In this document: in pieces, positions 40,842-63,228 of the stretch
Layout of the letters: each line of letters opens with the position of its first letter
Position numbering within the stretch: position 1 is the first letter of the stretch
From: an uncultured Planctomycetia bacterium
GTDB taxonomy: Bacteria > Planctomycetota > Planctomycetia > Pirellulales > Thermoguttaceae
DNA length: 64,000 nucleotides
Direction: 5' to 3'
Assembly (NCBI GenBank): GCA_963719885.1
Contig: CAVRDP010000030.1
Span: 66,250-130,249, forward strand
Position numbers and translations under genes: made by a program
Notes under the pieces: generated by a model
Told to the model about the DNA's origin: nothing
Database searches by the model: none
The model's input: the letters and a program-made list of their open reading frames with translations, nothing else

Positions 40842-41615
40842 CTCTCTGCCAGGATGTATGCCGCAATAATGACCGTCACCCCGCTGCAGGCAAATGCCAC
40901 TTGGCGCCAGGGCAACCGCGGCATGGCAGGCAGAGGCAAGTGTCCCCGATAACCGCGGGCCGTCATGGCCTCATGCGACTTCTCGGCCTGATCCAACGAG
41001 CGGAGGACGACCATCCCCGCCAGGTTCCCCAGCGATTGAAACGATCGCCGCATGTCCGCTGTAGCCCAGGCGGACCCTCTGCGCCGCCGTGATGCAAACG
41101 GATTGCTCAAGGAAGACGTGCAGGTAGCGATACATGAGCACTGCGATTTCGATCCACGTCCGCGGTACCCTGGCCCAGCGCAATGCGGCGAGGATTTCCG
41201 CAACGGACGCGCCCTGGCATAAGAGCATTACGATTCCGAACGAGCCGAGCACGCGGCTGGCGATCAAGGCTCCCGCCCGGAAGCCTTCGCGGCTGGCCGT
41301 CAAGCGACAGAAACCGAGATCGATCGTGGCCATCGGCGTGGCGCCTGTCATGAACGTCTGCATCAGCAACACAAGGGCCGCAATTGCCGCCGGTCCCATC
41401 AGCCGGTACATGAGGACCTTTGGCGGGGTGCGCACGGCGGCCAGGCCGGCCAGCGAGCACCCCAGCGCAATCAATCCGAACCCAATGTACGTCGACGCCA
41501 CGGTCGCCACGACGGCCGCCAGGGCCACGATCAAGCGGACACGAATGTCGCAGCCCGCCAGCAGAATGCTGCTGGACCCGGATCCGCGCGAACGAAACTC
41601 GTGAAAGTGGTGCAT
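40829..41615 (-). CDS. cbiQ: Cobalt ECF transporter T component; one frameshift as assembled (~41050)
   Basis: ORF 40971..41615 (multi-TM, ...AQRVRLGYS) joins ORF 40829..41203 (ADMRRSFQSLGNLAGMVVLRSLDQAEKSHEAMTARGYRG). Confidence 0.8.
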
Positions 41616-41638
41616 GATCGCCTTCTTAGAAAAGAAGA

Positions 41639-41678
41639 TGGTAGAAAGGAAAATGAGTTCATTTTCCTTTCTACCATT
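41639..41678. repeat. AT-rich perfect 19-bp palindrome in the cbiN-cbiQ gap
   Basis: ATGGTAGAAAGGAAAATGA-gt-TCATTTTCCTTTCTACCAT, followed by further TTTTCCTTTCT repeats. Confidence 0.9.
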
Positions 41679-41687
41679 TTCCTTTCT

Positions 41688-41924
41688 TCAATCTTCCTTT
41701 TGCTTCTTGCTAACTTCGTTTGCGGCCCGTTTTCGCGGTGGGAAGAGCCCGCGGAACGTGTAACCGATGATGAACCCGCCGATCACGCCGGCCAGCAGGA
41801 ACATGAAGAGCAGCAAGTCGCCTTGCTCGGTATTGATATAGGGCTCCCGCGCCGGGTGCCCGGCATCGGCGGCCACCTTTTCTACCAAATCGTCCAGGCC
41901 TTGCCAATTCGTCGCGTAGATCAT
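41688..41924 (-). CDS. cbiN: CbiN-like small cobalt-transport membrane protein
   Basis: ATG at 41924 (ATGA overlap with the cbiM stop). ...QGDLLLFMFLLAGVIGGFIIGYTF resembles the CbiN C-terminal helix. Position between cbiM and cbiQ fits. Confidence 0.65.
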   Translation of the reverse strand: MIYATNWQGLDDLVEKVAADAGHPAREPYINTEQGDLLLFMFLLAGVIGGFIIGYTFRGLFPPRKRAANEVSKKQKED

Positions 41925-42694
41925 GCGTCGGCTCCTGTGGGTTGCTCCAAACCGGCACCGGCTTCGAGCGATTCCAGCGGGAGGCAATCGTCGCGGCCAA
42001 CATCGGGATCAAGATTGTGCGAATCCGCGCGTACCCCGAGCAAGTCTGGCCGGCGGTTCAGGACAAAACGGTAAGCCAAAGCCGTGACCACCCCCTCGGC
42101 AATGCCCAGGGGAACTTGCGTGGGAGCGAACAAGGCGATCATAAAGGCGAACATGCCCCAAAAGGAACCATGGTTGCGCAGGACCGCGGCGAGTTCCACG
42201 GAGGTCATGGCGTAGGTAGCCCAGTCGGAGGCGATCCCGGCTGCCAGTGCAGCGGCGAAGATCGGGACCCTCATCCTCCGCAGAACATGAAACAGGCCAT
42301 AAGCGCTAAAGGCCCCGACCACGCCCATGGATACGATATTCCCGCCCAAGGTCGTCAATCCGCCATGGGCCAGGAACAGGGCTTGAAACAGGAGGGCGAT
42401 GCTGGCCACGACGACTGTCGGCCCCGGGCCGATCAAGAGGGCCCCCAGGCCCGTGCCGCAGGGATGTGAGCACGTGCCGTGTTGGCTGAGCGAAGGAATG
42501 GGTATGGGCGTGCAGGAGATGACGAAGATTGCCGCTCCCACCATTGCCACCAGGGTCATGGCGCGGGGATCTTCCCTGCGCCGCCGATCGATGGTCCGCA
42601 ACCCCCAGAAGACGAAAGGCGCCGCCACCAGGAACCACAGGCTCGCCCAGTCGATCGGCAGGATTCCTTCGGAGATGTGCATGGCATAAAGCAT
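41921..42694 (-). CDS. cbiM: Cobalt ECF transporter substrate-capture component
   Basis: GAGGAG upstream of the ATG at 42694. MLYAMHISEGILP contains the conserved MHIxEG N-terminus. Multi-TM. Confidence 0.85.
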   Translation of the reverse strand: MLYAMHISEGILPIDWASLWFLVAAPFVFWGLRTIDRRRREDPRAMTLVAMVGAAIFVISCTPIPIPSLSQHGTCSHPCGTGLGALLIGPGPTVVVASIALLFQALFLAHGGLTTLGGNIVSMGVVGAFSAYGLFHVLRRMRVPIFAAALAAGIASDWATYAMTSVELAAVLRNHGSFWGMFAFMIALFAPTQVPLGIAEGVVTALAYRFVLNRRPDLLGVRADSHNLDPDVGRDDCLPLESLEAGAGLEQPTGADA

Positions 42695-42696
42695 AA

Positions 42697-43699
42697 TTAT
42701 TTCTCCTCGCCGAGCGTGGCCAGGGCGTTGACGGCCGCCGCCGCCACCGAGCTGCCGCCGCGCGGGCTGGTGTTGGTAATCGAACAAAGGTCGCTCTCCC
42801 ATAACGCCAGTTTCGATTCCCTGGCGCCGACGAAGCCGACAGGCAGCCCGACGACCAGGGCCGGACGATGGCCGCCGTTGCGGGCGAGTTCCATGACTTT
42901 CCAGAGCGCGGTCGGCGCGTTTCCGATGGCCACGATCGCGCCCTCGATACGCGGCGCCAGCAGTTCCATGGCCGCCGCCGCCCGCGTACATCCCCTGCTT
43001 CGGGCCAAGGCGGCGACCTCGGGGCGATCGAGCGCAGCAGAGGATTTCGCCGCGGACCTTCGTCATACCCGCCTGGAGCATCTTGACATCGCAGACGATC
43101 GGCTTGCCTGCGGCCAATGCCGCAAGCCCACGCTGGATGGCCTGCGGATGAATCCGCAGCGTGCGGGCGAAGGAGATATCGGCCGTGGCATGGACCACGC
43201 GGCGAACAATTCGCCGCGCCCCGGTATCGGCGGGACCCCAATCGCCAAGTTGCCGGTCGATGATCTCGTAGCTTCGCCGCTCGATGGCCGCTCCGTCGCT
43301 CGGTAGGCATGGGCTGCTATCCGTGTATGGCGTGAGCCGTTCCACCAGCAAGTCCTCTAGCGCAGGATCGTTTTCCAGCGTGGGCAGCAGTTCCAGCGCG
43401 ACCTGCGGGCATCGCCGGCGGCACTCATCCAAGAGCGCGGGAATATCGACGGTCACATGCTGGCCGGAATAAAGAAAATAGGGCATCGAGAAGACGCGAC
43501 GCACTCCGCCAGCCGCCATGGCAAGCACCTGATCTGGGATATCGGGTCGGGTAATGGAAAAGAAGGCCGGTGCCACCTCAGCCCCTTGCAATCGCGATGC
43601 CACGCGCGCGACCATGGCCTGAAAGCCCTGGTTTGCCTCGGCACGAGGGCTGCCATGACTGATAATAAGGATGCCGGTTGCGTTTGCCGCGTCGCTCAT
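42697..43699 (-). CDS. cbiX/cbiC: Apparent CbiX(small)-CbiC fusion (sirohydrochlorin cobaltochelatase + cobalt-precorrin-8 methylmutase); one frameshift in the CbiC part (~43030)
   Basis: N-terminus ILIISHGSPRAEANQGF...MPYFLYSGQHV (CbiX). Then IERRSYEIIDRQL...VVHATADISF...IVCDVKMLQAGM (CbiC). After the frame switch the reading continues in ORF 42697..43008 (GAIVAIGNAPTAL...PALVVGLPVGFVGARESK). Confidence 0.8.
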
Positions 43700-45133
43700 G
43701 GTCGTTTCTCACAGCAAGAGAGGAAGTGGTGAATTGCCTCGGGCCGGGATGCCCAATGCAGGTGTACGTAGCCGGCCAAAACCCGTCCCCGGCAAAACCC
43801 TTCCAGGGCGGGTTCGGCCCGTCGGCGGCAAACCGTGTAAGCCGGTTGCCAACCGCCCGCCGGGCCATCTTGGGTGGTGATTTGCGGAATAATGGAACTC
43901 GTGTCCGCGTACGATCTCTTCCGCCGCTCCCCATAGCGAATCGGCTGCCCACTGGATCTCCGTATAGCCCAGCACCTTGAGCTTCTCCAGCATGGCCGTC
44001 TCGATGGGCAACACGCCGGCCAACAGATACCGCACGCCGTCCAAGGTGGTCAGGGCTTGGCCAAGGTACATCAGCCCGCCACACTCGGCATAGACGAGGC
44101 CTCCCGCGGCGGCGAACTCGCGGACGGCGGCCAACATTCCCAAGTTAGCGCTCAAGCGGGCGGCATGGACCTCGGGATAACCGCCGCCGAAGTAAAGCCC
44201 ATCCAGCTCCGCGGGCAGGCCCACGTCGGCCAGTGGCGAGAACGGCACCCACTGGACGCCGGCCCGCGCCAGCGATTCCAAGTTGTCGGGATAGTAGAAG
44301 TGGAAGGCTTCGTCCCGGGCAATTCCCAGGCGGAGGTTGGCCTGTAGGGAACGCCCTCCGTGGCGTTCCGAATTAGGGGCGATCGTCTCCTTCACGGAAC
44401 GCCGCGGAGGGCGTTCCCTACAGTCGTGACACACGTCGCCGCTCCCCGCCAATTCCAAAATCGCCGGCACGTCCAGGTATTGACCACAGGCATCGGCCAA
44501 CTGATCGAGGATTCCGGCCGAAAGGTTCGCTTGCTCGGCGGTCACCAACCCCAAATGCCGGCTAGGCAACGTGGGCAGCGATCCGCGGGGCAACATGCCC
44601 ACCAGCGGTGGCGATGAGGCACCCGCCAACGATTCCGACAGCCAGGCGCGGTGCCGCTCGGAGCCGCCCTGGTTGGCGATCACCCCCGCCACGCGGACGC
44701 CCGGCTCGAAGCGGGCAAAACCTTGGACCGTCGCCGCCAGGCTGCGGGCCGCTCCATGCGCATTGACCACCAACAGCACCGGTGCGTCGAGCCACAGCGC
44801 GATCTCGGCCGTACTACCCTCGAGAGTGCTTGGCGAAGCGCCGTCGAACATGCCCATCACGCCTTCGATAATCGCGAGGTCGGCATCGGCCGTTGCCCGC
44901 ACGAACAACTCGCACACATATTCGCGCGAGGTCATCCATCCGTCGAGGTTGTAGCAGGTGCGGCCGGAGGCCATGGCCAGGTAACTCGGGTCGAGGAAGT
45001 CGGGCCCGACTTTGAAGGTCTGCACGCGCAATCCTTGTCGCACAAGCCGCCGTGCCAGTCCCAGCGCAAGTGACGTCTTTCCCACGCCACTGCCGGTTCC
45101 GGCAATCACCAGTCGGGGACAAACGGAACTCAT
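43696..45133 (-). CDS. cbiA: Cobyrinate a,c-diamide synthase; one frameshift as assembled (~43890) and an in-frame repeat insertion
   Basis: ATG at 45133 (MSSVCPRLVIAGTGSGVGKTSLALGL...FKVGPDFLDPSY). GATase part has IARDEAFHFYYPDN...YAECGGLMYL...RGHEFHYS. The true C-terminus lies in another frame (GWQPAYTV...LEGFCRGRVLAGYVHLHWASRPEAIHHF) and ends at a TGA overlapping the cbiX ATG. Confidence 0.85.
44342..44423. repeat. GTAGGGAACGCC...GGCGTTCCCTAC palindromic element inside cbiA
   Basis: CTGTAGGGAACGCCCTCCGTGGCGTTCCG ... CGGAACGCCGCGGAGGGCGTTCCCTACAG. Translated in frame as RERPPRRSVKETIAPNSERHGGRSLQ. Confidence 0.85.
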
Positions 45134-45657
45134 CGCTCGACTCCTTCCTGGGCGGCCCGCCCGGCTTGCAGGCCGTGCTTGAGGCATCGCATTTCCGTGA
45201 CGGTATCGGCCAAGGCGATCAAGGCGGGAGTCGCGTAGCGGCCCGTGAGCACCAGGCACGTCTCCGGCGGGGCCTGGGCCAGGAGTTCCGCCACTTCGTG
45301 TTCCTCAAGCAATCCACGGGCGACGGCCAGACAGATCTCGTCGAGGATTACCAGCGGGAACTGCCCACGGGCCAGGATTTCCGCCGCCTTGCGCAAGCCG
45401 GTTTGCGCCGCCGCCCGATGCTCGACGAAACGCGGATCATCGACCGGTGGCAGGAATCCCAGCCCCGTCGTATGGATCTCAATGTTCGCGGAAGCCGCCG
45501 CGGCGGCAACTTCGCCTACGGACGTGTCGCTCTTGATGAACTGGATGACGTTGGACCGCAGGCCATGACCGCTGGCGCGGAAAGCCATGCCCAAGGCGGC
45601 CGTGGTCTTGCCCTTGCCGTCGCCCGTGAAAATCAGGATCCGCGGTTTCTGGCTCAT
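45130..45657 (-). CDS. cobO: Cob(I)yrinic acid a,c-diamide adenosyltransferase
   Basis: ATG at 45657 (ATGA overlap with the cbiB stop). ILIFTGDGKGKTTAALGMAFRASGHG...VIQFIK...LVILDEI...LVLTGR. Intact. Confidence 0.9.
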   Translation of the reverse strand: MSQKPRILIFTGDGKGKTTAALGMAFRASGHGLRSNVIQFIKSDTSVGEVAAAAASANIEIHTTGLGFLPPVDDPRFVEHRAAAQTGLRKAAEILARGQFPLVILDEICLAVARGLLEEHEVAELLAQAPPETCLVLTGRYATPALIALADTVTEMRCLKHGLQAGRAAQEGVER

Positions 45658-46748
45658 GCGCTGGTCCCCCACACTTGCCATAGATTTACTGCCCCCGCCC
45701 GCAGCAGCAGGCATGCCACCAGAAACAACGCGCTGGTCCACAGCATCGAGAGAGTGGCGCACACGATGTGGCACCGCGACAAGGGCATGAGCGGGTCGCC
45801 GATCGTGGGCTTTTCCAGCGGCTGGCCGTCGTAATAATTCACCCCGCCCAACTGCACGCCCAGGGCGCCGGCCATGGCGGCTTCAGCGAGACCGGCGTTC
45901 GGACTGGCGTGCTTCCGCCCGTCTCGGAGCAGGATGCGTAGCGCGTGCCGCGCCGAGAGGATCGAAGCCCGCGCCGCCGCCAGGCACATCAAAGGGGCCG
46001 TGAGCCGGGCGGGGAGATAGTTGGCCAAATCGTCGATCCGCGCCGCCGCCCAGCCGAAATGCCGGTAGCGGTCATCCTGGTGCCCGAACATCGAATCCAG
46101 CGTGTTCACCGCCCGATAGACCATCGCCCCTACGGGACCGGCAATCGCGGCGAAGAACAGCGGGGCCGTCACTCCGTCCACCGTGCTCTCGGCGACGCTT
46201 TCCACGGCGGCCCGGACCACGCCTGCTTCGTCGAGTTGCTGCGTGTCGCGGCCGACGATTTTCGCGACCCGTCGCCGGGCCTCGTCGAGGTCGCTGGCAA
46301 CCAAGGCACTAAAGACCGCCATGCTATGCCGGGCCAGGTCGTGCGCGGCAATGGTCATGTAGATAACGAAGATCGACACCGCATCGGCCGCCCACGGATG
46401 CACCGCGGCCGCTAGATGAATCGCTGCCCACGTTGCCAGGCCAACCAGAATATACGTAGTGAGCGCCGCCAACAGGCCTGCAATTCGCGTCGCCTCCGCC
46501 TGGCACAAGAAAGGTAGCAGGCACACTCCGTGTGCCGTCCGCCCTACTGCCCCAGCCAAAGGTTCATTTTCAGAAGCCGAAGGCTGCTGGCGGACGGCAC
46601 ACGGAGTGTGCCTGCTACTTTGCCGCGACAAAGTTTCCAGCCAAAGCGCCAGCCGCCCGATGCCGCGGACCGGGTGCGGCAACCATCGCGGATCACCGAG
46701 GATCAGGTCGATGGCAAAGGCACTCAGGATTTGATATTCGAGTCTCAT
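45654..46748 (-). CDS. cbiB: Adenosylcobinamide-phosphate synthase, with an in-frame ~36-codon repeat insertion
   Basis: AIDLILGDPRWLPHPVRGIGRL...IVGRDT...ESTVDGVTAPLFF...YRAVNTLDSMFGH...ARIDDLANYLPARL...SPNAG. Frame intact. Confidence 0.9.
   Translation of the reverse strand: MRLEYQILSAFAIDLILGDPRWLPHPVRGIGRLALWLETLSRQSSRHTPCAVRQQPSASENEPLAGAVGRTAHGVCLLPFLCQAEATRIAGLLAALTTYILVGLATWAAIHLAAAVHPWAADAVSIFVIYMTIAAHDLARHSMAVFSALVASDLDEARRRVAKIVGRDTQQLDEAGVVRAAVESVAESTVDGVTAPLFFAAIAGPVGAMVYRAVNTLDSMFGHQDDRYRHFGWAAARIDDLANYLPARLTAPLMCLAAARASILSARHALRILLRDGRKHASPNAGLAEAAMAGALGVQLGGVNYYDGQPLEKPTIGDPLMPLSRCHIVCATLSMLWTSALFLVACLLLRAGAVNLWQVWGTSA
46513..46620. repeat. AGCAGGCACACTCCGTGTGCCGTCCGCC palindromic element inside cbiB
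   Basis: GGTAGCAGGCACACTCCGTGTGCCGTCCGCC ... GGCGGACGGCACACGGAGTGTGCCTGCTACT. 108 nt. Translated as SSRHTPCAVRQ...GRTAHGVCLL. Confidence 0.9.
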
Positions 46749-49438
46749 CAGAAACCCATAAGCCGGTAGACTTCGTCCATTCGTATACTCTCACGCACCA
46801 CTTCCGCCAGGCGATCCAAGGCCGGCTCGATGTCGTAGCGGCCGATCACCTTTCCCACGGGCGCTAGGCCGCGCCGCACGCGCAAACCATCGATGAACCA
46901 GCGGCGGAAGGCGTCGCAATCGAACAGACCGTGCAGGTACGTACCCCAAACTCTATGACCATGGTCGGCAATGCCGATGGTCTGGCCGTCGTCGCGAGTT
47001 ATCATCGGATCACAATCGTCAAAGATTGTTTGCCCGTGATGGATCTCGTAGCCGCTCAGTCTGAAGCCGGAAAGGAGATGCCGGGCGGTGGTCGCGACCA
47101 GCGTTTTCTCGGCTGCCATCACCGTGTCGGCGGCGAGCAGTCCCAACCCGCGGGAGTACCCGTGGGATTTCTCGCCCGCCGATTCGATGCCAAGTGGGTC
47201 GCGGATTTCGCGGCCCAGCATCTGCAGTCCGCCGCAAATTCCGATGACCTCCCCCCTGCCCTCCCGGGCCAAGGCGGTTATCCGCTCGGCCAATCCGCTG
47301 CGACGGAGATAATCCAGGTCGCCCAACGTGTTCTTGCTGCCGGGGATGATTACGGCATCCGGGGAATTCAGGTCCGCCGCGGTGCGAATGATTCGCAACC
47401 GCACGTCAGATTCCGTGCGGAAGGCGTCGAAATCGGTGAAGTTCGCGATGTGCGGCAAGTCGAGCACCGCGATCTCGACGGCGTCTTCGTTTCCGGCCGC
47501 TTGATCGAGCGCGCCGCTCTTGAATTCGACCGAATCTTCCTGGGGAAGACCGAGTTGGGCAAGATACGGTACCACGCCGAACACGGGCCGGCCTGTGTGC
47601 CGCAACGTATAGTCCAGCGCGGGACCCAGCAAACTTGCGTCGCCGCGAAAACGATTGACGACCCAGCCGGCGACCCGCTTGCGTTCCCAGGGGGCAAGCA
47701 CTTCCATCGTGCCGACGAACGAAGCAAACACGCCGCCGCGATCGATGTCGCCGACTACGAGCACGGGGGCGGCCGCATACTCGGCCATCCGCATGTTGAC
47801 GATGTCATGACTCTTCAGGTTCACTTCGCCGGGCGAGCCGGCGCCCTCCAAGACCATCGCGTCGAACTCCTCAGCCAGCGAGTCGTAGCACTGTTTTGCG
47901 GCGGCAAAGGCCTGCGGCTTGTAGGCTACGTACTCGCCGACTCGCATGTTTCCCACGGGCTTGCCCCGCACAATGACCTGGCAGCCGGTGTCCGAATTGG
48001 GTTTGAGGAGGATGGGGTTCATCCGCACATCGGGCTCCAGGCGGCAGGCCTGGGCCTGTACGACCTGGGCGCGGCCCATCTCGCCGCCGTTGCGGTCAAT
48101 GAACGAATTGAGCGACATGTTTTGGGCCTTGAACGGCGCCACGCGGATGCCGTCCTGGAACAGAATCCGGCATAAGGCCGCCGTCAACACGCTCTTGCCG
48201 GCATTGGAACTCGTGCCTTGAAGCATGAGGGCCGGCGTCTGCCGACATTTGCAAAATGAATTTGCACGATTTGCGTAGGGTGGGACAAGATCCGGGGTAC
48301 CCGCGCCGTGGGTCGGCGAGCGCCGGCCCACCAATTCTTGCGGTTGGTGGGCCGGCGCTCGCTGCGCGATCTTGTCCCACCCTACGATTTGCTCCAGAGC
48401 CTCGCACAGCCGGCAGTTCTCTTCCTCCGTGCGCACGGCTACGCGGAAGAATCGGGTGTCGAGGTGTTGCTCCTCGTCGAAGGTGCGGATGGCAATGCCC
48501 TCGCGAAGCAGGTGATCGGCCAGATCCGAAGCCTGCATGTCGGTTCGATCCAACCGGACCAGGAGAAAGTTCGTGACGCTGGGGTAAACATGCAGCCCGG
48601 AAAGCTTCATCAGTTTCGCGGTCAGCCGCGTCCGCTGCTGGTCGACCAGGGCTATGCTCTGTCGTGCGTAGTCTTCATCGGAGAGCAAATCGATCGCAGC
48701 CTCTTGCGCCAAAACACTCACCGACCAAGGCAGGATTTGGCCTCGGATCTGCCGGACGGCCTCCGGGCAGGCCACCGCATAGCCAACGCGCAGTCCGGGG
48801 ACCGCGTAGAACTTCGTCAGCGAGCGCACGACGATCACGTTGGACGCGGTCCGCCCGGCCAAAGATGCGTAGCCCTCGATGAAATCAGCGAAGGCCTCAT
48901 CGACGACAAACGTGGTGGCGCGATGCCGGGCGGCCAGCCCGCAAAGTGCATCGCCATCCAGTGCCCGGCCCGTGGGATTGTTCGGTTGACCGAGGAGCAC
49001 GAGATCTTGTTCGCGAAGTTGACCTTCCAACGCGTGCCAGTCGAGGGCAAAGTCCTCGCTTTCCTTCAACTTCAAGAAAGAGACTTCACGGCCGGCCGCC
49101 CGCACCGCCGCGGCGTAGTCGGTGTACGAGGGCACGGGGATGACCGCGCGGGCGAAGGAAAGGGCCCGCGCCAAGGCGAAGAGAAGTTCCGTCGAGCCGT
49201 TACCGACGACGACCTGCTCTTCGGCCACGTGGTGTCGCCGTGCCAGGAACTCGACGAGGTCGCTGCAGTCGGGATCGGGATAATGCACGATCCGGTCGAT
49301 GTTCCGCGTCAGTGCCGCCCGCAGACCATCGGGTGGGCCCAGCGGATTGATGCTGGCGCTGAAATCGAGGATTTGGTCCTGGCCCCGTCCGGCCCGTTGG
49401 GCCAACTCATGCAGGTTTCCGCCGTGTGTATTTGCCAT
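46748..49438 (-). CDS. cobD/cobQ: Apparent fusion of L-threonine-phosphate decarboxylase (CobD, Salmonella naming) and cobyric acid synthase (CobQ/CbiP)
   Basis: Single intact 896-aa ORF. N-terminus is aminotransferase class I/II-like (HGGNL...NPLGPP...PNNPTGR...[15 protein letters not shown]). A linker encoded by a nested palindrome follows. Then [14 protein letters not shown]...KPNS...[10 protein letters not shown]...YEIHHG (CobQ). Confidence 0.85.
48274..48384. repeat. Nested palindromic element (111 nt) at the cobD/cobQ junction
   Basis: Outer arms GTAGGGTGGGACAAGATC / GATCTTGTCCCACCCTAC. Inner arms GCGAGCGCCGGCCCACCAA / TTGGTGGGCCGGCGCTCGC. Confidence 0.9.
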
Positions 49439-49441
49439 CGG

Positions 49442-50224
49442 TTACCTGCCTCCCATTGGCCCAATGGCCAAGACGATTGCCGGGACGGCTTCCATGATTT
49501 CGCAGACGGCACCGAAGGTGTCGCCCGTCGCGCCGCCGATCTTCCGATAGGTGTATGCTGAGAAGACCGCCGTCGCGGCCATGCAAACCGCCCAGACCAC
49601 CAGCCCGCGCCACCCGAGGAGGCCAAAACCCACGGCCGCCAGAACTCCCGCGGCCCAGATGGCCACCCAGCGCGGCCGGGCACCAGGTCGGGCACCATGT
49701 ACCCATGGTCGTGGTCGGCGGTAGAAGATAGCACCCAGTCCGCTCGGCCGCGCGTAGGGCAAGAGGGCCATGTGGACGACGATCGCGCACCGCCCGGCAA
49801 GCGGCATGAGCAGCACCGCCCGCCAAAACATGCCGGCAGGCAGCGAGGCCAGCGCGGCGAATTTCACCAGGAGCAGGCAGGCGATGGCGATCACCCCCAT
49901 GGCCCCGATGTGGCTGTCCTTCATGATTTCCAAGATTCGCTCGCGCGGGCGGGAACTGAGGAAGCCGTCGGCCGTGTCGGCCAATCCATCCAGGTGCAGG
50001 CAGCCGGAGAAGCTCAAGAGAACGACGACCACCACGGCGGCCGCCAGCAGGGGCGGCGCCGCCAGGGACACGGCCCACGCCAGTCCGGCTGCCGCCGCGC
50101 CCAGCAAGAGGCCAATCAGCGGAAACCAAGGCACGCTCCGGGCAAGATCCTCCTCGGCCGTGCCCCAGCCGCCCGGGACCGGCACGATCGTGAGAAACCG
50201 TAGGGCTGCCAGCAGTGGTTTCAT
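49442..50224 (-). CDS. cobS: Adenosylcobinamide-GDP ribazoletransferase (cobalamin synthase)
   Basis: ATG at 50224 (ATGA overlap with the cobT stop). LRFLTIVPVP...FPLIGLLLG...HLDGLADTADG...IGAMGV...GGATGDTFGA. Confidence 0.85.
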   Translation of the reverse strand: MKPLLAALRFLTIVPVPGGWGTAEEDLARSVPWFPLIGLLLGAAAAGLAWAVSLAAPPLLAAAVVVVVLLSFSGCLHLDGLADTADGFLSSRPRERILEIMKDSHIGAMGVIAIACLLLVKFAALASLPAGMFWRAVLLMPLAGRCAIVVHMALLPYARPSGLGAIFYRRPRPWVHGARPGARPRWVAIWAAGVLAAVGFGLLGWRGLVVWAVCMAATAVFSAYTYRKIGGATGDTFGAVCEIMEAVPAIVLAIGPMGGR

Positions 50225-51285
50225 GCTTCCGCCTGTGAAACGTGTGCTTCCTCGAACGTGGCCACTTCGGTCAGGATCCGTTGTGCCGCGTCGACCAGGT
50301 TCATCGCCAGCGCCGCCCCCGTGCCTTCTCCCAGTCGCAGCCCCAGATCCAGCAGCGGTTCCTTCCCCAAGCGGGCGTGCATGGCCCGATGCCCCGGCTC
50401 CGCGCTGCGGTGCGCGGCGATGACGTACTGACTCGCCGCGGGGCAAAGGGTATGAGCCAAGAGTGCCCCAGCCGTTGAAATAAAGCCGTCCACAACGACC
50501 GGCTTCCGCCGGGCGGCGGCCGCGAGCACGACGCCGGCAATGCCGCCGATCTCATAGCCGCCGACTTTGGCCAACACGTCCAAAGCGTCCTGCGGATCGG
50601 GCCGATTCGAGGCCAATGCCGTTTCTACGATGGTGATCTTTCTGGCCAGTTGGCCGTCGTCGATGCCGGTGCCGCGGCCCACCAGGTCGCCCACCGGCAG
50701 TCCGGTCAGTGCGGCAAGGACGGCGGTGGAAGGCGTCGTATTGGCGATGCCCATGTCGCCCGTGCCGAAGACGTCGGTGGTTTCGGCCAGGTCTTCGACG
50801 ACCTCGATGCCTGCCTCCACCGAACGTACCGCGTGTTCCCGGGACATCGCCGGCCCGGCCACGATATTGGCCGTTCCCAGGGCGATTTTCTTGTCGATGA
50901 TCTTGCCGGCCTTCGCCAGCGAGCCAAGATCGGCGGCCACCCCCATATCAACCACCATGACCCGCGCCCTGGCCAATCGCGCCAAGGCACTAATGCCCGC
51001 CATGCCGCCGACGAAGCCATAGACCATCTGTGCCGTGACTTCCTGGGGGTACTTGCTCACGCCTTCGGCCGCCACGCCATGATCGCCGGCCAGGGTAACG
51101 ATGGTCTTCCGTGCCGTCGGTGGATTCATCGAACGAGTGATGCCGGCCAGGTCCATGGCCAGATCCATCAACCGCCCCAGGGCCCAGTGCGGCATGATGA
51201 GTTGGTCCAGTCGCTGCCGCGCCTTGCCGCGCCAGGCCTCGTCTTGGGGGGAAATTCGAGTCAGGGTAGTGTGAAGCAGGCTCAT
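50221..51285 (-). CDS. cobT: Nicotinate-nucleotide--dimethylbenzimidazole phosphoribosyltransferase
   Basis: 354-aa intact ORF. LAGDHGVAAEGVS.YPQEVTAQMV...GDMGIANTTPS...GYEIGGIAG...LGEGTGAALA. Confidence 0.9.
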   Translation of the reverse strand: MSLLHTTLTRISPQDEAWRGKARQRLDQLIMPHWALGRLMDLAMDLAGITRSMNPPTARKTIVTLAGDHGVAAEGVSKYPQEVTAQMVYGFVGGMAGISALARLARARVMVVDMGVAADLGSLAKAGKIIDKKIALGTANIVAGPAMSREHAVRSVEAGIEVVEDLAETTDVFGTGDMGIANTTPSTAVLAALTGLPVGDLVGRGTGIDDGQLARKITIVETALASNRPDPQDALDVLAKVGGYEIGGIAGVVLAAAARRKPVVVDGFISTAGALLAHTLCPAASQYVIAAHRSAEPGHRAMHARLGKEPLLDLGLRLGEGTGAALAMNLVDAAQRILTEVATFEEAHVSQAEA

Positions 51286-51292
51286 GACGATG

Positions 51293-51329
51293 CTCCCCTC
51301 GCCTTTCGGGAGAGGGCCGGGGGTGAGGG
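51293..51329. repeat. CTCCCCTC...GGGAGAGGG...GGGGTGAGGG hairpin element (cobU-cobT gap)
   Basis: CTCCCCTCGCCTTTCGGGAGAGGGCCGGGGGTGAGGG. Confidence 0.7.
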
Positions 51330-51342
51330 CAATGTAGTTCTG

Positions 51343-51885
51343 TCAGGTATCTTTCACTTGAACGGGGATTCCGCAACAAAGCAGCGTTACCGTGTCGGCA
51401 CGGGCGGCAACGACCTGATTGGCGCGGCCGATCAGGTCGCGATAGCGCCGGGCCTGGGCATTTTCCGGGACCACGCCCAGACCAACCTCGTTGGTGACGA
51501 AGATTACCGTGCCGCGACAGGCCTCGGCGGCATCCAATACCTCGCGGCACCGCGCGGCAACGTCGGTTTCCGTGAAGGGGCGGCCTTCGTGCTCGGCGTG
51601 GTACATCAGGTTATTGATCCAAAGCGTGACGCAATCCACCAACAGAACGTGGTGCTGCCCGTGGCGGTGAAGGATATCGGCCAGCTCGCACTGTTCCTCG
51701 ATGGTCTCCCAACCGCGGTCGTAGCGGGCGCGGCGGTGCTGCTCGATGCGGTCTCGCATCTCTTCGTCCGTGACGGGGCAGGTGGCCACGAACAGCCGCG
51801 TGGGCGGCAACGACTCGGCCAGTTGCTGGGCATAGTTGCTCTTGCCGCTACGACAACCGCCGGTAATGAGTATGATTCTAGGCAC
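51343..51885 (-). CDS. cobU: Adenosylcobinamide kinase / adenosylcobinamide-phosphate guanylyltransferase
   Basis: ILITGGCRSGKS (P-loop)...EEMRDRIEQHR..R...W.TIE...LVDCVTLW...VTNEVGLG.VP. Intact. Confidence 0.9.
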   Translation of the reverse strand: MPRIILITGGCRSGKSNYAQQLAESLPPTRLFVATCPVTDEEMRDRIEQHRRARYDRGWETIEEQCELADILHRHGQHHVLLVDCVTLWINNLMYHAEHEGRPFTETDVAARCREVLDAAEACRGTVIFVTNEVGLGVVPENAQARRYRDLIGRANQVVAARADTVTLLCCGIPVQVKDT

Positions 51886-52489
51886 GGCCGTCCTCCGCCT
51901 CGTCGGGCCTCTCCAGTGCAGCTAGCACACCCTTGCCGTCCTGCAGATCGATCACCGCCAGCGCGGAGTACCGCACGTCGAACGCCAAGTAGTGTCGGGG
52001 CTCGAGTCCGAGCAAGTGACAAATCATCGTGCGGACGACTCCTCCATGTGTGACCGCCAACACGGTCTGGGCCTCGGCATGGGTCAGGCGATCGGCCGCG
52101 CTGCGAACGCGACCCAAAAAATCGCCCACGCTTTCCCCGCCGGGGAAGGCGAAATCGGGACTGAATTCTGCCCATCGATCCACCAGCGTTGGGTCCTCGC
52201 CGGCTGCTTCGGCGAACGTTCGCGTTTCCCACTCGCCGAAGTCGACCTCGCGGAGGTCCGCATCAACCTGCGCCAGCAAGTCCGGAACTACAGCCGCTGC
52301 CGTTTGCCGGCAGCGTTGCAGCGGGCTGCAATAGCAGGCCTGCGGCGCCCATCGCGTCAGCCGCTCTGTCAGGCTCCGTGTCGGCACTTCGCCCGCTGGA
52401 TCCAGCGGTACGTCGGTAGCGCCGATCATTCGCCCGACGTATCGAGCCTCGATCCGAGCGTGCCGCAATAGTAACAGGCGTCTGGCCAT
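51878..52489 (-). CDS. cobC: Alpha-ribazole phosphatase (histidine phosphatase family)
   Basis: LLLLRHA start (RHG-type motif), SPLQRCRQTA, FGEWE, VTHGGV. Operon position between cobA and cobU. Confidence 0.8.
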   Translation of the reverse strand: MARRLLLLRHARIEARYVGRMIGATDVPLDPAGEVPTRSLTERLTRWAPQACYCSPLQRCRQTAAAVVPDLLAQVDADLREVDFGEWETRTFAEAAGEDPTLVDRWAEFSPDFAFPGGESVGDFLGRVRSAADRLTHAEAQTVLAVTHGGVVRTMICHLLGLEPRHYLAFDVRYSALAVIDLQDGKGVLAALERPDEAEDGRA

Positions 52490-52494
52490 TGGTC

Positions 52495-53238
52495 TTATCC
52501 CAGCCCCACGACTTCACCCACGACGATGACTGCCGGCGGGCAGAGCTTCCGCTGCTCGATCACGTCGGCCACGGTTCCCAACGTGCAGCGGACGGTCTCC
52601 TGGTCCGGCCAACTCGCGCGGCGGACGATGGCCACCGGCGTGTCGGGCGGTCGGCCGCCGCGCAAGAGGGCCTCGCTCCACCGCCGCGAGGTCGTCATAC
52701 CCATATAAAAAACCAGCGTGCCGGGGAACTGCGCCAAACAGCCATAGTCCATTTCCGGGCCGGCCCCATCGCCGCGCCGGTGCCCGGTAATAAGCGCAAC
52801 TGCCGAGGCCAGGTCGCGGTGGGTAAGGGGGATGCCCGCATGACTTGCTACGGCGAAAGCGGCCGTGACCCCAGGAACCACTTCATAGGAAATGCCCGCT
52901 GCGGCAAGCGCGTCAACCTCCTCGGCCCCGCGCCCGAACAGATACGGATCGCCGCTCTTAAGGCGAACCACGGTCTTGCCTTCCCGGGCCGCCGCCACCA
53001 TCCGCTGGTTGATCTCTTGCTGGAGCGCCGCCCGGCCTCCATGCGGATGTCCGAGGCAGACACATTCGGCGGACGCCGGCGCATAGCGCGTCACCTGGGG
53101 ACTTACCAGGTAGTCATAGAGCACGAGATCCGCCTCGGCAAGACATTCAGTGCCACGAACGGTGATCAAGCGCGGATCACCCGGGCCGGCTCCGACCAGA
53201 TAGACTTTTCCAAGACGGTGTTCGGACGCCTGTGTCAT
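52495..53238 (-). CDS. cobA: Uroporphyrinogen-III C-methyltransferase (SUMT)
   Basis: ATG at 53238. KVYLVGAGPGDPRLITVRG...VVRLKSGDPYLFGRG.EE...YEVVPGVTAA. First gene of the operon. Confidence 0.9.
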   Translation of the reverse strand: MTQASEHRLGKVYLVGAGPGDPRLITVRGTECLAEADLVLYDYLVSPQVTRYAPASAECVCLGHPHGGRAALQQEINQRMVAAAREGKTVVRLKSGDPYLFGRGAEEVDALAAAGISYEVVPGVTAAFAVASHAGIPLTHRDLASAVALITGHRRGDGAGPEMDYGCLAQFPGTLVFYMGMTTSRRWSEALLRGGRPPDTPVAIVRRASWPDQETVRCTLGTVADVIEQRKLCPPAVIVVGEVVGLG

Positions 53239-53255
53239 GATTGGCCATCGCTTGC

Positions 53256-53285
53256 AAAAAAAGCCCGTCCTTCGGCAGGAGGGCC
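53256..53285 (-). terminator. Riboswitch expression-platform terminator upstream of cobA
   Basis: Minus strand reads GCCCTCC-tgccgaa-GGACGGGC followed by TTTTTTT. It ends 17 nt before the cobA ATG. Confidence 0.6.
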
Positions 53286-53414
53286 TCAAACGCGCAACGA
53301 TGGCATTGGACCTTCCCACGAAGGCATGCTATAAGGACGGCCGCTACCACGACTCCCTTCTCCTGCCGGGAGAGGGGCAGGGGGTGAGGGGTTCAGTTGC
53401 GGTCATCGATCAAG

Positions 53415-53660
53415 CATCCTTTTTTGGTGTCCTGACTTTCGGGTCGTCCTACTCGCTACGGCCTTCCCATCCCCACGAGGACAGTGGCCAACATTGCAGC
53501 TTTCGTCGCCGATCACAGTGGCGGGGCCGTGCCGGATTTTCACCAGCTTCCCTGCTTTCCGCTTGCAGTTGGTGAGGCAGATTGAACCGTCATCAGTCGG
53601 AGAGCGCCAGCGCGCTGACCCCTCGATCACGGGGCAACAGCCGCCGAAACTCAAGCGGAA
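53415..53660 (-). promoter_or_regulatory. Cobalamin riboswitch (controls the cob operon)
   Basis: Minus strand reads GCAGGGAAGCTGGTGAAAATCCGGCACGGCCCCGCCACTGTGA ... CCACTG...GGGAAGGCCG ... AGTCAGGACACC (B12-box-like). These match the conserved core as I know it (Rfam RF00174). Confidence 0.8.
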
Positions 53661-53739: not shown

Positions 53740-53767
53740 TTGACGCCGATTCGCGGCATGGTACACT
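53740..53767 (+). promoter_or_regulatory. Sigma70-like promoter for the peptide/rSAM operon leader
   Basis: TTGACG-N16-TACACT. 38 bp from the divergent promoter. Confidence 0.5.
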
Positions 53768-53769
53768 GG

Positions 53770-54000
53770 AGGCGGTTTCAGCATCTCGGAACACGGTGCA
53801 AGTCCGTGGCTGTCCCGCAACTGTAATCGGCGAGGCGACTCACTTAGAACCTATCCCAGAACCCTGAGATGGCCCTGGAGTGCATCGGGCTCAATCCGGT
53901 TCCAGGATAGGTTCTCAGGCCCCCGCCGGCCACTGCCGCGATGCATCGCGGTGGGAAGGCCGTGAGCCGCCAACGACCCGCAGCCAGTAGACCTGCTGAT
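53770..54000 (+). promoter_or_regulatory. Cobalamin riboswitch (controls the peptide/radical-SAM/S51 operon)
   Basis: GGAACACGGTGCAAGTCCGTGGCTGTCCCGCAACTGTAA (53788-53826), CCACTGCCGCGATGCATCGCGGTGGGAAGGC (53930-53960), and B12 box GCCAGTAGACCTGC (53983-53996). A long stem insert (AGAACCTATCC...GGATAGGTTCT) lies in the variable region. Confidence 0.8.
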
Positions 54001-54041
54001 GCCACGCACGCAACGTGAATCTGATGGTAAAGGATTCCGAT

Positions 54042-54077
54042 GGACGCTCCACGTCTGTCGGGGTCCTTTTTTGTTTT
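54042..54077 (+). terminator. Riboswitch expression-platform terminator
   Basis: GGACGCTCCACGTCTGTCGGGGTCC hairpin followed by TTTTTTGTTTT. A T-run like this is conspicuous in a 65% GC genome. Confidence 0.55.
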
Positions 54078-54156
54078 CCGCACCCTTCACCCCTGCCCCT
54101 CTCCCTTCCTGTCGTACGACAGGCGGGCAAGGGGAAAACTTAAGAAAGAGAGAAAC

Positions 54157-54300
54157 ATGAAGAAGACACCGAAACTGCCCTCATCCCCTGCCCCTCTCCC
54201 CAAGAGAGAGGGGAGCGACGTGATCGCCTATCGCAAGACGTGCAAGGCCACGGGCACCGGCCTGTCGCACTACATCTTGATGGACAAGAAAGCGAAGTGA
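54157..54300 (+). CDS. Short peptide ORF (47 aa from ATG 54157, or 26 aa from GTG 54220): candidate precursor peptide
   Basis: MKKTPKLPSSPAPLPKREGSDVIAYRKTCKATGTGLSHYILMDKKAK. Its TGA shares a base with the ATG of the radical SAM gene (TGATG at 54298-54302). The alternative GTG at 54220 has GAGGGGAG 5 nt upstream. Confidence 0.55.
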   Translation: MKKTPKLPSSPAPLPKREGSDVIAYRKTCKATGTGLSHYILMDKKAK

Positions 54301-55736
54301 TGGCGCGTGCCAAGCACCTGCGCGGTGCCCCCCAGCAGAGTGCCGGCGTACCGGCCCCTTCCCGGGGCCGGTACGTCGGTACGGGCAATGGTCCGGCCTT
54401 CCAGCCGATCGACATCGGCCACCCCGAGTACGTGGCCGTCATCGAAGCGGAGACGGCTTTTTGGGCATTGGTCCGCCGCGAGAAGTTGGCCTCGGCGGCC
54501 CTCGAGGGCGAATTGGTCAAGTCCTTCCGCAAGAAGGCTTCGCTGTTCGCCAAAGAAATAGAAACGCTCCGTTTCGGCCTGAAACCGTCGGCCGTGTATT
54601 TCAATCCGACGGAGCGCTGCAACTTGAATTGTGCCTACTGCTATATCCCGGAAGACATGCGCCGCGCGGGACAGCACATGTCGGGCGAGAAACTCTTGGA
54701 ATCGTTGGCGATTCTCAAACGCTACTTCCGCACGACGGTTCCCAAGGGCACGCTGCCGCAGATCGTCTTCCACGGCGCCGAGCCGCTGCTGAATCGCGAG
54801 GCTGTATTTGCCGGGATCGAGCGGTTTGCCGACGACTTCCGCTTCGGCATCCAAACCAATGCCACGCTCCTCGATGAATCGGCCATCGAATTCCTCCGCG
54901 GCCACCAGGTCAGCATCGGCATTTCGCTCGATGCGCCTACGGCTGCCATTGCCGACCGCACACGAAGCAACTGGGAAGGCCAAGGGGTTTTCCCACAGGT
55001 CGTCCAGGCGATGGACCGGCTCAAGGGCTACCCGGGCTGGAGCGTGATTTGCACGGTCTCCACGGAAAACCTGCGGCACCTGACGAAGCTCGTCGATTTC
55101 TTCCACAAGCACGAGGTGCCCACCTGCCTGATGAACATTCTCCGCTGCACGCTGCCCCGCTCGCGGAGCGTGAAACCGGCCGATGCGCCGGCGGCAAAGT
55201 ACTTCTTGAAGGCCCTCGATCGCACGCACGCGTTATACAAGAAGACCGGGCGGAAGCTGATCGTGGGCAATTTCGCCAACATCTTGCTGGCCATTATCGC
55301 TCCGGCGTCGCGGCGGCTGATGTGCGACATCTCGCCCTGCGGCGGTGGCCGCTGCTTCTTCGCCTTGGCCCCCAACGGCGACCTCTTCCCCTGCAGCGAG
55401 TTCATCGGCTTGCAGTCGTTCTGCGGCGGCAACCTGTTTCGTGACGATATTCCGAATGTGCTCCAGAGCGGGCCTTTCCAATTGGTCACCGGCCGGAAGA
55501 TCGAGGACATCGATCCTTGCCGGCGTTGTGCCATCCGGCACTTCTGCGGCGCGCCTTGTCCGGCCGAGGCCCACGAAATGAACGGCCGTATGGAAAAGAC
55601 CGGCGCCTTTTGCGAATTCTACGAGGAACAGGTCCGCTATGCCTTCCGCCTCATTGCCGACGAGAAGGTCAACGACTACCTCTGGGACGATTGGGACCAA
55701 GGCCTGCGGCAGACGTTCGCAAGTGGCACATCCTAG
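54300..55736 (+). CDS. Radical SAM enzyme with C-terminal SPASM-type Cys-rich domain (putative peptide maturase)
   Basis: 478-aa intact ORF. CNLNCAYCY (54618-54641). GAEPLL. C-terminal CDISPCGGGRCFFALAPNGDLFPCSEF and CRRCAIRHFCGAPCPAEA. ~95-aa N-terminal extension before the radical SAM core. Confidence 0.85.
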   Translation: MARAKHLRGAPQQSAGVPAPSRGRYVGTGNGPAFQPIDIGHPEYVAVIEAETAFWALVRREKLASAALEGELVKSFRKKASLFAKEIETLRFGLKPSAVYFNPTERCNLNCAYCYIPEDMRRAGQHMSGEKLLESLAILKRYFRTTVPKGTLPQIVFHGAEPLLNREAVFAGIERFADDFRFGIQTNATLLDESAIEFLRGHQVSIGISLDAPTAAIADRTRSNWEGQGVFPQVVQAMDRLKGYPGWSVICTVSTENLRHLTKLVDFFHKHEVPTCLMNILRCTLPRSRSVKPADAPAAKYFLKALDRTHALYKKTGRKLIVGNFANILLAIIAPASRRLMCDISPCGGGRCFFALAPNGDLFPCSEFIGLQSFCGGNLFRDDIPNVLQSGPFQLVTGRKIEDIDPCRRCAIRHFCGAPCPAEAHEMNGRMEKTGAFCEFYEEQVRYAFRLIADEKVNDYLWDDWDQGLRQTFASGTS

Positions 55737-55758
55737 ATGCGTTGGCAGGGAGTCTTTC

Positions 55759-57622
55759 ATGAATTCCGCCTTCTTTCGCATGCTGTTCTGGGTAACGTTG
55801 TTGAGCGCGAGCACAGGGCGATTTTGTGAATTGAGGGCCTGCGCCGAGGACAACCCGTTCGGCTTTCCAGAACCGACACGTCCGCAAGGGTTGGGGTCGG
55901 TCATGCTGCATGGCGGCGGCGGGGGAGTTCAAGAATATGTACGGCAAGAGTTTCTCCGCTTGGCAGGCGGCAGGACTGCACGCGTAGTTCTGCTTCCGTC
56001 GGATGAAGAGCAGCGCCGGCCGGGCGAAAAGCTCGCGGCCTATGAGGAGCGGCTCAGCCGCCCCGGCGTTTACGGGAGGTGGCGGGAACTGTGTCGCGGC
56101 AACGATGCCCATTTTCAGTTTCTCCACTGGGATTGCCCCGAAGATCCCGACCATTCACGGTTCTTTTCCACTTTGGAAGAAGCTAGCGGAATTTGGATTC
56201 CGGCTGAGGATCAAGAATGGGTCATCAGGCGTTTTGCCGGCGATCCGCTCAAACCGACTCGCTTCCAGTTGGCACTGCGTAACCTTATGGCGCGCGGTGG
56301 AGTCGTAGGGGCATCAGGTGGGGGAATGGCGAGCCTTTCTGAAACCGTGATCGCCGGAAATGTCGCCGACGCGGAAGGCGGTTGGACTCGGGCCCGACTC
56401 GCGTTCGGCCTAGGTCTCTTTCAAGGAACTTTGCTCGATCAGAACTTCAACATCTGGTCCGGACGAGTCGAACGCTTGACTGACGCGTTGAGGAACGGTC
56501 CCCAACTCGATCGAGTCGCGCGGAAAGCGGGCGTGCAGCGGCGGACGATCGGATTGGGTGTCGATCGTCAAACGGTGGCCATTGTCAGCGGCAGGACGAT
56601 TCGAGCGATTGGGGAGGGCAACGTTCACGTATTCGTGCAGAGCAACGGCGGCAGAACCCTGGCGTGGTACCGCCTTGCGGCTGGAGACAAGCCACTCGTG
56701 CTTACAACCGCATCCGTTCGGGAGCGCGGCATTCCCCAGTCGGTGAAGGCCGACAGCGCCGAAAACCCCTTCGGTGCGCCTCCCGGCAGGGGAACCGTTG
56801 TCTTGCACGGTGGGGGAAGTACCGCAGAGATGTACGACTTGTTTCCGCGACTTGCCGGGAAGACGCATCCCAAGCTCCTACACTGTCCGTCGGCAAGCGA
56901 CAGGTACCAGCGGATGTCGAACGCAGAATTGATGGTGAGCGATCTTGCCGAAGTGTGGAAGACCGACGCCGTCCAGAGCCTACGTTTCATCAACGCCGAT
57001 AAACCGGGTCGGGCTGAGCAGGGCGAATTCTGCGGCTTGCTTGATGCTGCCGATGCCTTGTGGATCATGGGAGGCGATCAAAGAAACCTGACGACGCTGT
57101 ATGTCAATCCGGTAAAACCGACTCTCTTCCAGAAGAAGGTTCGGAATATCGTGGAGCGCGGCGGCGTCGTTGGCGGCTCATCCGCCGGATGCGCGGCCCT
57201 GTCGGATGTGATGATTGTTGGGACCGTTGCCAGCAATGGCCGTGGTCCCGCGCGAGCGGAAGCTTGCGCGGGGCCTGGGAGTCCTCTCGAACGTCGTGGC
57301 CGAGCAGCATTTCGATGCGCGGCAAGGACGGATCGAGCGATTTGCAGGGCTGTTGCGGAACAAGCAGCAACTTGCCAATGTATCGCCCGGCTGCGATCCG
57401 GGGCAGATGGTTGGTCTAGCGGTGGAGGAGAGCACCGCTCTTATCGTCCGCGGAAATCGCTTAAGCGTTGCCGGGAAGAACAGGGCCCATATCTTTCTAA
57501 AATCGGCGGCCCATGATGCTCTGACGTGGCACACCCTCGCAGCCGGCGATATCGCCGTTGTCGGCACCACCCCGGACGGTTCGCACCAGCTTTATTTCGA
57601 GGAATGGGGCGTCGCCGACTAA
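55759..57622 (+). CDS. Exported protein with two tandem cyanophycinase-like (peptidase S51) domains; one frameshift as assembled (~57235)
   Basis: Signal peptide MNSAFFRMLFWVTLLSAS. Half 1: VMLHGGGG...GGVVGASGGGMASLSE...LLDQNFNIWSGRVERL. Half 2: VVLHGGGS...GGVVGGSSAGCAALSD...VVAEQHFDARQGRIERF. Built from ORFs 55639..57516 and 57215..57622. Confidence 0.7.
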
Positions 57623-63115: not shown

Positions 63116-63228
63116 TGCCGGGGCTCCTGGGGTTGCAAGGGACAAGGGCGATTATACTGTCAGTACGCGGCCGACGGAAGACCCCCTCGGCCGCTAACGA
63201 CAACAATTGGCGTTGGCAAGCCTACGGG

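Follow-up and report, generated by a model that had tools for sequence, protein, structure and literature searches.

The 64,000-nt window studied here, a stretch of contig CAVRDP010000030.1 from an uncultured planctomycete of the Thermoguttaceae, carries on its forward strand what we read, at a probability of about 0.7, as a self-contained CbpA/CbpB cassette, in which a cobalamin riboswitch and an intrinsic terminator precede the gene of a small peptide, CbpA, and that of a radical-SAM/SPASM enzyme, CbpB (SAM, S-adenosylmethionine). All four elements are present and were assigned to RF00174, TIGR04164 and TIGR04163, and the cassette is transcribed divergently from a cob operon that is itself riboswitch-controlled (Table 1). 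The locus is another member of the catalogued CbpA/CbpB family and no new kind of system; the interest lies in the family, which by its sequences appears to be a peptide system of wide distribution and hardly any variation, controlled by B12 riboswitches.

The original prediction, made from the letters of the window alone, had named the family CbpB (rSAM_cobopep) for the enzyme, and the profile searches bear this out. CbpB scores 710.2 bits against TIGR04163 (cutoff 375), its residues 34–461 covering model positions 1–428 of 428, and passes the Pfam cutoffs of PF04055 (67.7 bits) and PF13186 (24.3 bits), while NCBI names its homologues ‘peptide-modifying radical SAM enzyme CbpB’. CbpA reaches 59.9 bits against TIGR04164 (cobo_pep, ‘modified peptide precursor CbpA’; cutoff 35), with residues 22–46 spanning positions 1–25 of 25. 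The TGA of the 47-aa open reading frame (ORF) and the ATG of the 478-aa enzyme overlap by one nucleotide, the common base being 54300, which is consistent with the predicted coupling of a peptide to a radical-SAM/SPASM maturase. The CX3CX2C motif of CbpB reads CNLNCAYCY (C107, C111 and C114), and the C-terminal cysteines that had been taken to be of SPASM type form a complete set (C342, C347, C352, C365, C407, C410, C416, C420 and C438); all of these are invariant throughout the 48 sequences obtained by aligning the window protein with 47 homologues.

Other radical-SAM/SPASM families stay far under their cutoffs on CbpB, namely DynA (122 bits against 450), PapB (122 against 340), the SCIFF maturase model TIGR03974 (86 against 425) and the two models for anaerobic sulfatase-maturating enzymes (anSME), TIGR03942 (111.5 against 349) and NF010321 (73.1 against 441). 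An AlphaFold2 model of CbpB, with a mean predicted local distance difference test score (pLDDT) of 84.9, has CteB as its nearest fold and also resembles anSME, TigE and ChlB. The best PDB sequence match is anSME 4k36 (E 2.4e-18), over the whole core and the SPASM domain. The N-terminal domain (residues ~34–92) falls inside the family model, and residues 29–101 modelled alone take up a beta-beta-beta-alpha-alpha topology (pLDDT 77). Residues 1–108 gave no Pfam match at E up to 10, and a comparison of the N-terminal domain model with PDB folds returned nothing significant, TbiB1, a protein with a recognition element (RRE) of ribosomally synthesised peptides that are modified post-translationally (RiPPs), appearing only at E 2.8. 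The original prediction had suggested a possible RRE-like domain in this N-terminal extension. Superposition of the full-length model on CteB, which has an RRE, extends over ~460 columns, though with a root-mean-square deviation of 5–7 Å.

For the comparison of loci, one genome per GTDB species was scanned for CbpB relatives, and at least 589 species genomes were found to encode one. We compared the loci of the best 80 of these at least 589 relatives, which are 61–83% identical, together with L081 and L082, where the identity is 90% and 88%, so that 82 related loci were covered. The hosts of the family are mostly uncultured, and the cassette recurs in about ten phyla. Among the hosts of the best 80, those from the Planctomycetota include Brocadiaceae and Phycisphaerae, and the others comprise Syntrophales/Smithella, Kiritimatiellia, Verrucomicrobiota, Dehalococcoidia/Chloroflexota, Nitrospinales, Anaeromyxobacteraceae, Omnitrophota and metagenome-assembled genomes (MAGs) labelled as Bacillota. 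The TIGRFAMs description of the family is that of a planctomycete, cobalamin-operon-associated system, and the restriction to planctomycetes that the original prediction had taken from it does not stand in view of this spread.

The small ORF is conserved at the orthologous loci, a CbpA core standing directly 5′ of cbpB in 80 of 80, and the stop codon of cbpA and the start codon of cbpB share 1 nt in 45 of the 81 loci and 4 nt in 14 others. RF00174 was detected on the coding strand just 5′ of cbpA in 30 of the 36 loci scanned with Rfam, and a hidden Markov model (HMM) made from the cbpA-linked riboswitches matched in 74 of 81, two of the seven misses having no upstream DNA. A hairpin with a T-run follows the aptamer in 65 of 71 loci, at a spacing of 47–105 nt (205 nt in one case), and the 5′ arm of this terminator, ATGGTAAAGG(G/A)TTCCG, is conserved in sequence across phyla. 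Riboswitch, terminator, cbpA and cbpB are thus a unit that travels together in about ten phyla.

In the control region of the window, all three elements that had been described from the letters, a promoter, a cobalamin aptamer and a terminator, are found on the + strand. A consensus scan gave two promoter-like sites in the region where 0.2 would be expected, and the + strand site stands back to back with a − strand site at 53701–53674. Its position is compatible with an aptamer helix P1 of TCAGCA (53779–53784) and TGCTGA (53995–54000), a pairing read from the sequence. The search of both strands with RF00174 returned a significant, full-length match on the + strand (model positions 1–189), and this aptamer scores 123.9 bits against the HMM made from cbpA-linked riboswitches. 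It carries a hairpin insertion of ~95 nt, whose arms form an inverted repeat at 53843–53863 and 53898–53918. The cbpA riboswitch of L082 is also unusually long (300 nt, 54 bits), which suggests that the insertion is common to the lineage of the window. The predicted gating by B12 through a terminator-type platform is in keeping with an aptamer above the gathering score that is followed by an intrinsic terminator. When the window RNA is folded without the 3′ arm of the terminator, the 5′ arm pairs with the conserved CGGAAC of the aptamer, and complementarity between this CGGAAC and the GTTCCG of the terminator recurs in about half of the loci; tentatively, the two may be regarded as a candidate antiterminator.

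The 25-aa core of CbpA is almost invariant over the 81 loci and can be written as VIAxRKxCx[APT]xGxGLSH[Y/F]IL. The R, the C, the G and G-L-S-H are invariant, and Y, I and L have one exception each, the Tyr being replaced by Phe in L079; position Cys+2 holds A in 68 of the 81 peptides, P in 7 and T in the other 6, and the tail behind GLSHYIL measures six residues in 60 of them. A typical CbpA of 33–40 aa consists of Met, about ten Lys-rich residues and the core. The window peptide carries every invariant core residue and has a Pro-rich stretch of ~12 aa in its N-terminal region; the start MKN(T/A) is kept in the relatives with 90% and 88% identical CbpB. Searched against 1.84 billion representative proteins, CbpA matched only small stand-alone peptides, and the core gave no match to PDB sequences at E up to 10. 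The three large hits, P0144, P0146 and P0217, were discarded as relatives, being repeat proteins with a chance ‘YKNTGTG..H.WI’ likeness. Two tandem cores (VIAxRKxCxAxGxGLSHYIL...), 5–8 residues apart, are seen in L063 (7789–7974), P0121 and P0122, and such precursors suggest that the 25-aa unit is recognised and modified on its own. As a side observation, a 16-mer, CCCCTGCCCCTCTCCC, occurs three times exactly, at 53368–53383 (−) in the 5′ untranslated region of the cob operon, at 54090–54105 (+) just past the cbpA terminator and at 54185–54200 (+) in the N-terminal coding part of cbpA (PSSPAPLP), L082 having a similar PSSPA segment. With up to two mismatches it is found five times against 0.07 expected, both + strand copies are overlapped by inverted repeats, and it may represent a small palindromic repeat family.

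Table 1. Features of the CbpA/CbpB locus and its surroundings, in window positions.
Feature	Position	Strand	Details
Sigma-70-like promoter	53740..53767	+	TTGACG, 16 nt, TACACT, TG before the −10 element; consensus match only
Cobalamin riboswitch aptamer, RF00174	53737..54014	+	45.8 bits, gathering score 31.5, E 2.7e-8
Intrinsic terminator	54029..54079	+	18-pair hairpin 54029–54069, then TTTTTTGTTTT; riboswitch expression platform
cbpA, 47-aa precursor	54157..54300	+	TIGR04164; sequence MKKTPKLPSSPAPLPKREGSDVIAYRKTCKATGTGLSHYILMDKKAK
Conserved CbpA core, residues 22–47	54220..54297	+	conservation over 81 loci
cbpB, 478-aa radical-SAM/SPASM enzyme	54300..55736	+	TIGR04163; PF04055; PF13186
Exported tandem S51 (cyanophycinase-like) protein gene	55759..57622	+	22 nt past cbpB; frameshifted
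Second cobalamin riboswitch, head of cob operon	53426..53552	−	RF00174, 82.2 bits, E 1.1e-18
cob/cbi operon, 13 kb	39939..53319	−	0.8 kb upstream, divergent

Clustering of all ORFs of the 80 loci gave no conserved partner gene besides cbpAB, and no exporter, protease, immunity or transporter gene is conserved near cbpAB in these loci. What follows cbpB is a convergent gene in about 25 of them and is otherwise highly varied; the downstream genes code, among others, for M28 and S8 peptidases, a cation efflux protein, an ABC permease and unassigned products. The sole recurrent neighbours are cobamide genes, which flank 24 of the 80 loci and belong nearly all to the late pathway (cobT, cobS, cobU, cobC, cbiB, cobD/Q and cobO, besides traces of cbiA). 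Three phyla contribute eight loci in which cobT lies directly 3′ of cbpB on the same strand, the order in L070 (Dehalococcoidales) being cbpA-cbpB-cobT-cobS-cobC-cobU, and in the riboswitch-less L073 cbpAB closes a cbiD...cobD/Q-cbiB operon. The window itself has a stronger RF00174 element on the − strand (53552–53426), overlooked in the original prediction, and behind it an operon of cobA, cobC, cobU, cobT, cobS, a cobD-cobQ fusion and cbiB, followed by cobO, cbiA, cbiX-cbiC-cbiM, cbiQ and cbiO. Its two riboswitches and their promoter-like sites stand back to back within ~200 nt, and the same layout of twin divergent riboswitches is met in other Planctomycetota (L008, L011, L016, L022, L031, L038, L039, L040 and L047). 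In L058 (3287–5521), another riboswitch-less locus, from a Bacillota MAG, a RACo-type activator, which acts reductively on corrinoid proteins, is encoded upstream of cbpAB.

Binding of a corrinoid to the aptamer would very probably allow the terminator to form and stop transcription, so that the cassette would be expressed only at scarce B12; this OFF direction follows from the terminator architecture together with the known behaviour of RF00174. Translation of CbpA and CbpB would be coupled. For the modification of CbpA and the role of the cassette we infer the following course. CbpB probably cleaves SAM reductively, and the hydrogen atom to be abstracted would belong to the conserved core at the C-terminus of CbpA. 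The modification may be centred on the single invariant Cys, as an intramolecular thioether to a residue of G-x-G-L-S-H-Y-I-L, a tentative assignment made by analogy with the thioether-forming CteB; a C–C or C–O cross-link on His or Tyr seems rather less likely, and oxidation of the Cys to formylglycine would be a surprise. Since exporter, protease and immunity genes are not conserved, we place the product inside the cell and suppose that it serves corrinoid metabolism, our best guess, cautiously put, being late, nucleotide-loop or salvage cobamide assembly. A core so strongly conserved between phyla, a riboswitch of its own and repeated fusion to cobT/S/U/C operons suggest a housekeeping role of this kind. 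It is a more doubtful idea that modified CbpA acts as a peptide-derived carrier, precursor or chaperone at the CobT-CobS-CobU-CobC or salvage stage of cobamide metabolism in anaerobes, although such a participant would explain why about ten phyla have the cassette under a riboswitch of its own, why in several of them it is fused into cobT/S/C/U operons and why the core is near-invariant. Two further ideas were dropped. A p-cresol-type phenolic lower ligand derived from the core Tyr is unlikely, given the Phe in L079 and CbpB not being a lyase of the ThiH/HydG type. As for a glycyl-radical ‘spare part’, the glycyl-radical motif is RVxG[FWY], which the core does not contain, and CbpB is a SPASM enzyme and no glycyl-radical activase.

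Several observations weigh against this reading of the cassette. The + strand aptamer, with its 45.8 bits, scores lower than those of relatives (62–106 bits), which we attribute to the ~95-nt insertion. Complementarity between the 5′ core of the aptamer and the 5′ arm of the terminator averages 4.9 nt against 3.8 nt in shuffled sequences, a modest excess, and no riboswitch is detectable in L015, L041, L043, L058 and L073 despite sufficient upstream DNA. Only 30% of loci have the cassette beside cob genes, and clustering of any two units regulated by B12 need not mean a common pathway. MAGs of Omnitrophota and Dehalococcoidia, lineages that are often not de novo corrin producers, carry the cassette as well; its occurrence in these probable non-producers makes a role in ring synthesis unlikely.

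The main rival to a cassette serving cobamide assembly is a B12-independent bypass, by which modified CbpA, alone or with CbpB, would back up or replace the function of a cobamide-dependent enzyme. The riboswitch-OFF logic matches that of known bypass genes, metE and nrdDG being switched on at scarce B12 in other B12 regulons, the cassette is a lone bicistron among unrelated neighbours in most loci, and some of its host lineages, Omnitrophota and Dehalococcoidia for example, probably need corrinoids from outside. We nevertheless regard the bypass as rather unlikely, since the replacement of an enzyme by a peptide of 33–47 aa is hard to envisage, recurrent linkage is confined to genes of cobamide assembly, with shared operons in the case of cobT/S/C/U, and no B12-dependent gene is recurrently adjacent. 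Considerably less probable still is that CbpB is an anSME-type enzyme turning the CbpA Cys into formylglycine. The C-x-[A/P/T]-x-G of CbpA does resemble the sulfatase motif C-x-[P/A]-x-R, with A, P or T at Cys+2 throughout, and anSME (PDB 4K36–4K39), which like CbpB joins a radical-SAM core to a full two-cluster SPASM domain, is the closest PDB entry by sequence and among the top ones by fold. The Arg of the sulfatase motif is an invariant Gly in CbpA, however, no sulfatase gene lies nearby, and the score on TIGR03942 is under the cutoff and no better than those for DynA or PapB. Moreover, CbpB has an extra N-terminal domain of 100 aa, its predicted substrate is a dedicated 47-aa peptide instead of a sulfatase, and the residue aligned with anSME Asp277, reportedly the proposed catalytic base, is an invariant Ser366. 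We give least credence of all to an ordinary antimicrobial or signalling RiPP whose proximity to B12 genes is coincidental: a precursor with a radical-SAM/SPASM maturase is the classical arrangement of sactipeptides and ranthipeptides, and two-core precursors exist, but a core ~70–90% identical and an enzyme 61–83% identical across about ten phyla are unlike fast-evolving antimicrobial RiPPs, a dedicated riboswitch is present in over 90% of the loci whose upstream DNA suffices, and immunity, transporter or protease genes are missing.

The original prediction had moreover counted the third gene as part of the system, and a three-gene RiPP system, in which the exported S51 protein would process or partner the peptide and the secreted product would scavenge cobalt or corrinoid, is to our judgement very improbable. 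The gene is present at 55759 as had been described, coding for a protein with a signal peptide and two S51/cyanophycinase-like halves, and no promoter- or terminator-like site was found in the 22 nt between cbpB and it; read-through from cbpB is possible in the window organism, and would then be a local accident. The invariant Cys and His of CbpA could be metal ligands, and peptidase-domain proteins of different families follow cbpB in three related planctomycetes, namely S51 in the window, M28 in L002 (9338–12343) and S8 in L082 (8976–12494), which may be a coincidence in peptidase-rich genomes or the non-orthologous replacement of a processing enzyme, the evidence being thin. Yet tblastn with the S51 halves gave no match in any of the 80 loci, the gene is not downstream of cbpB in L081 and L082, and its intact orthologues P0221 and P0225 (89% and 85% identity) sit in neighbourhoods of an unrelated kind, where cbpAB is absent within 5 kb. 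The window gene is frameshifted, CbpA has no signal peptide and, with its Lys-rich N-terminal stretch of ~10 aa, no typical leader, and the lack of a conserved exporter or leader peptidase argues against a secreted scavenger. The S51 gene is a local neighbour outside the conserved cassette.

That the S51 gene is not in one frame to 57622 had escaped the original prediction. Frame 1 ends at 57516 and gives 585 aa, as in the public record P0219, whereas the homologous C-terminus lies in the +1 frame from ~57246–57279; orthologues at 91% and 89% identity are intact with 620 aa. The product scores 109.7 bits against TIGR02069, summed over two stretches (cutoff 126.6), and 22.9 bits against PF03575 (cutoff 23.9), a family assigned to the intact orthologues in precomputed Pfam annotation, so that it is S51-like but no cyanophycinase equivalog. 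A second frameshift was noted in the cob operon, where cbiC is split near 43000–43040 (−) within the ORF 41921–43699: its N-terminal half continues the frame of cbiX, to which it is fused, and its C-terminal half (GNAPTAL...VVGLPVGFVGARESK...) lies in another frame and ends just before cbiM. With two such cases in the window, indel errors of the assembly are possible and the S51 frameshift need not be biological; the pair suggests assembly indels rather than true pseudogenes.

Among described systems, the CbpA/CbpB family itself is the closest, both window proteins scoring far above the equivalog cutoffs, with the peptide directly upstream and a cobalamin operon adjacent. To the TIGRFAMs description of the family, the related loci add a far wider range of hosts, the riboswitch and terminator as parts of the unit and the linkage to late cob genes. 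The family had been called uncharacterised, and full-text searching indeed found, in the literature available, no publication on the chemistry, product or regulation of CbpA/CbpB, which are defined there by bioinformatics alone; the family also goes unmentioned in a review of the SPASM enzymes of RiPP pathways. The SCIFF peptides and their maturase (ScfA/ScfB; CteB, PDB 5WGG/5WHY) likewise combine a small conserved peptide with a radical-SAM/SPASM enzyme, and both pairs are widespread and housekeeping-like, CteB also being the best fold match to the CbpB model. CbpA has one Cys against six in SCIFF, however, CteB has a recognised RRE whereas the N-terminal domain of CbpB has no significant RRE match, and we know of no riboswitch control of SCIFF. 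PqqA/PqqE and MftA/MftC resemble the cassette in their very short conserved precursor and radical-SAM/SPASM enzyme, and their products serve the metabolism of the producer and not warfare; these systems need further conserved genes (PqqB–F; MftB, D, E and F), including peptidases and an RRE that is separate or fused, whereas the cbp cassette has only two, and PqqE is only a distant fold match (6c8v, E 1.5e-8). With the cobalamin-riboswitch regulons (cob/cbi, btu, metE, nrd) it has in common that the genes are preceded by an RF00174 aptamer and then an intrinsic terminator, and it differs in that a peptide and a predicted peptide-modifying enzyme are controlled, a class that to our knowledge is not among the characterised members of B12 regulons and that we did not find in the literature.

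Both cobamide biosynthesis and the riboswitch regulon that belongs to it count as well mapped, and much new chemistry comes from peptide systems of the radical-SAM/SPASM type. The cassette joins both fields, with a B12 sensor of its own in nearly every copy and near-invariance from Planctomycetota to Dehalococcoidia, and its modification, once identified, would point to an added step or helper in the B12 metabolism of anaerobes or to a new B12-sparing function. The comparative results narrow the cassette to two genes, and the S51 protein can be dispensed with in its study.

Some minor observations concern the surroundings of the cassette. The convergent neighbour of the S51 gene (57732–59633, −) codes for a second S51-like protein of 633 aa with a C-terminal SLH domain, so that two S51 paralogues face each other downstream of cbpB. 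On an Omnitrophota contig, a group I intron (RF00028, 62.6 bits) was detected at 7475–7738 of L076, about 5 kb downstream of cbpB. Further along the window, the adjacent − strand ORFs 61289–62239 (316 aa) and 62294–63145 (283 aa), both without a Pfam match, may be pieces of one gene split by an indel.

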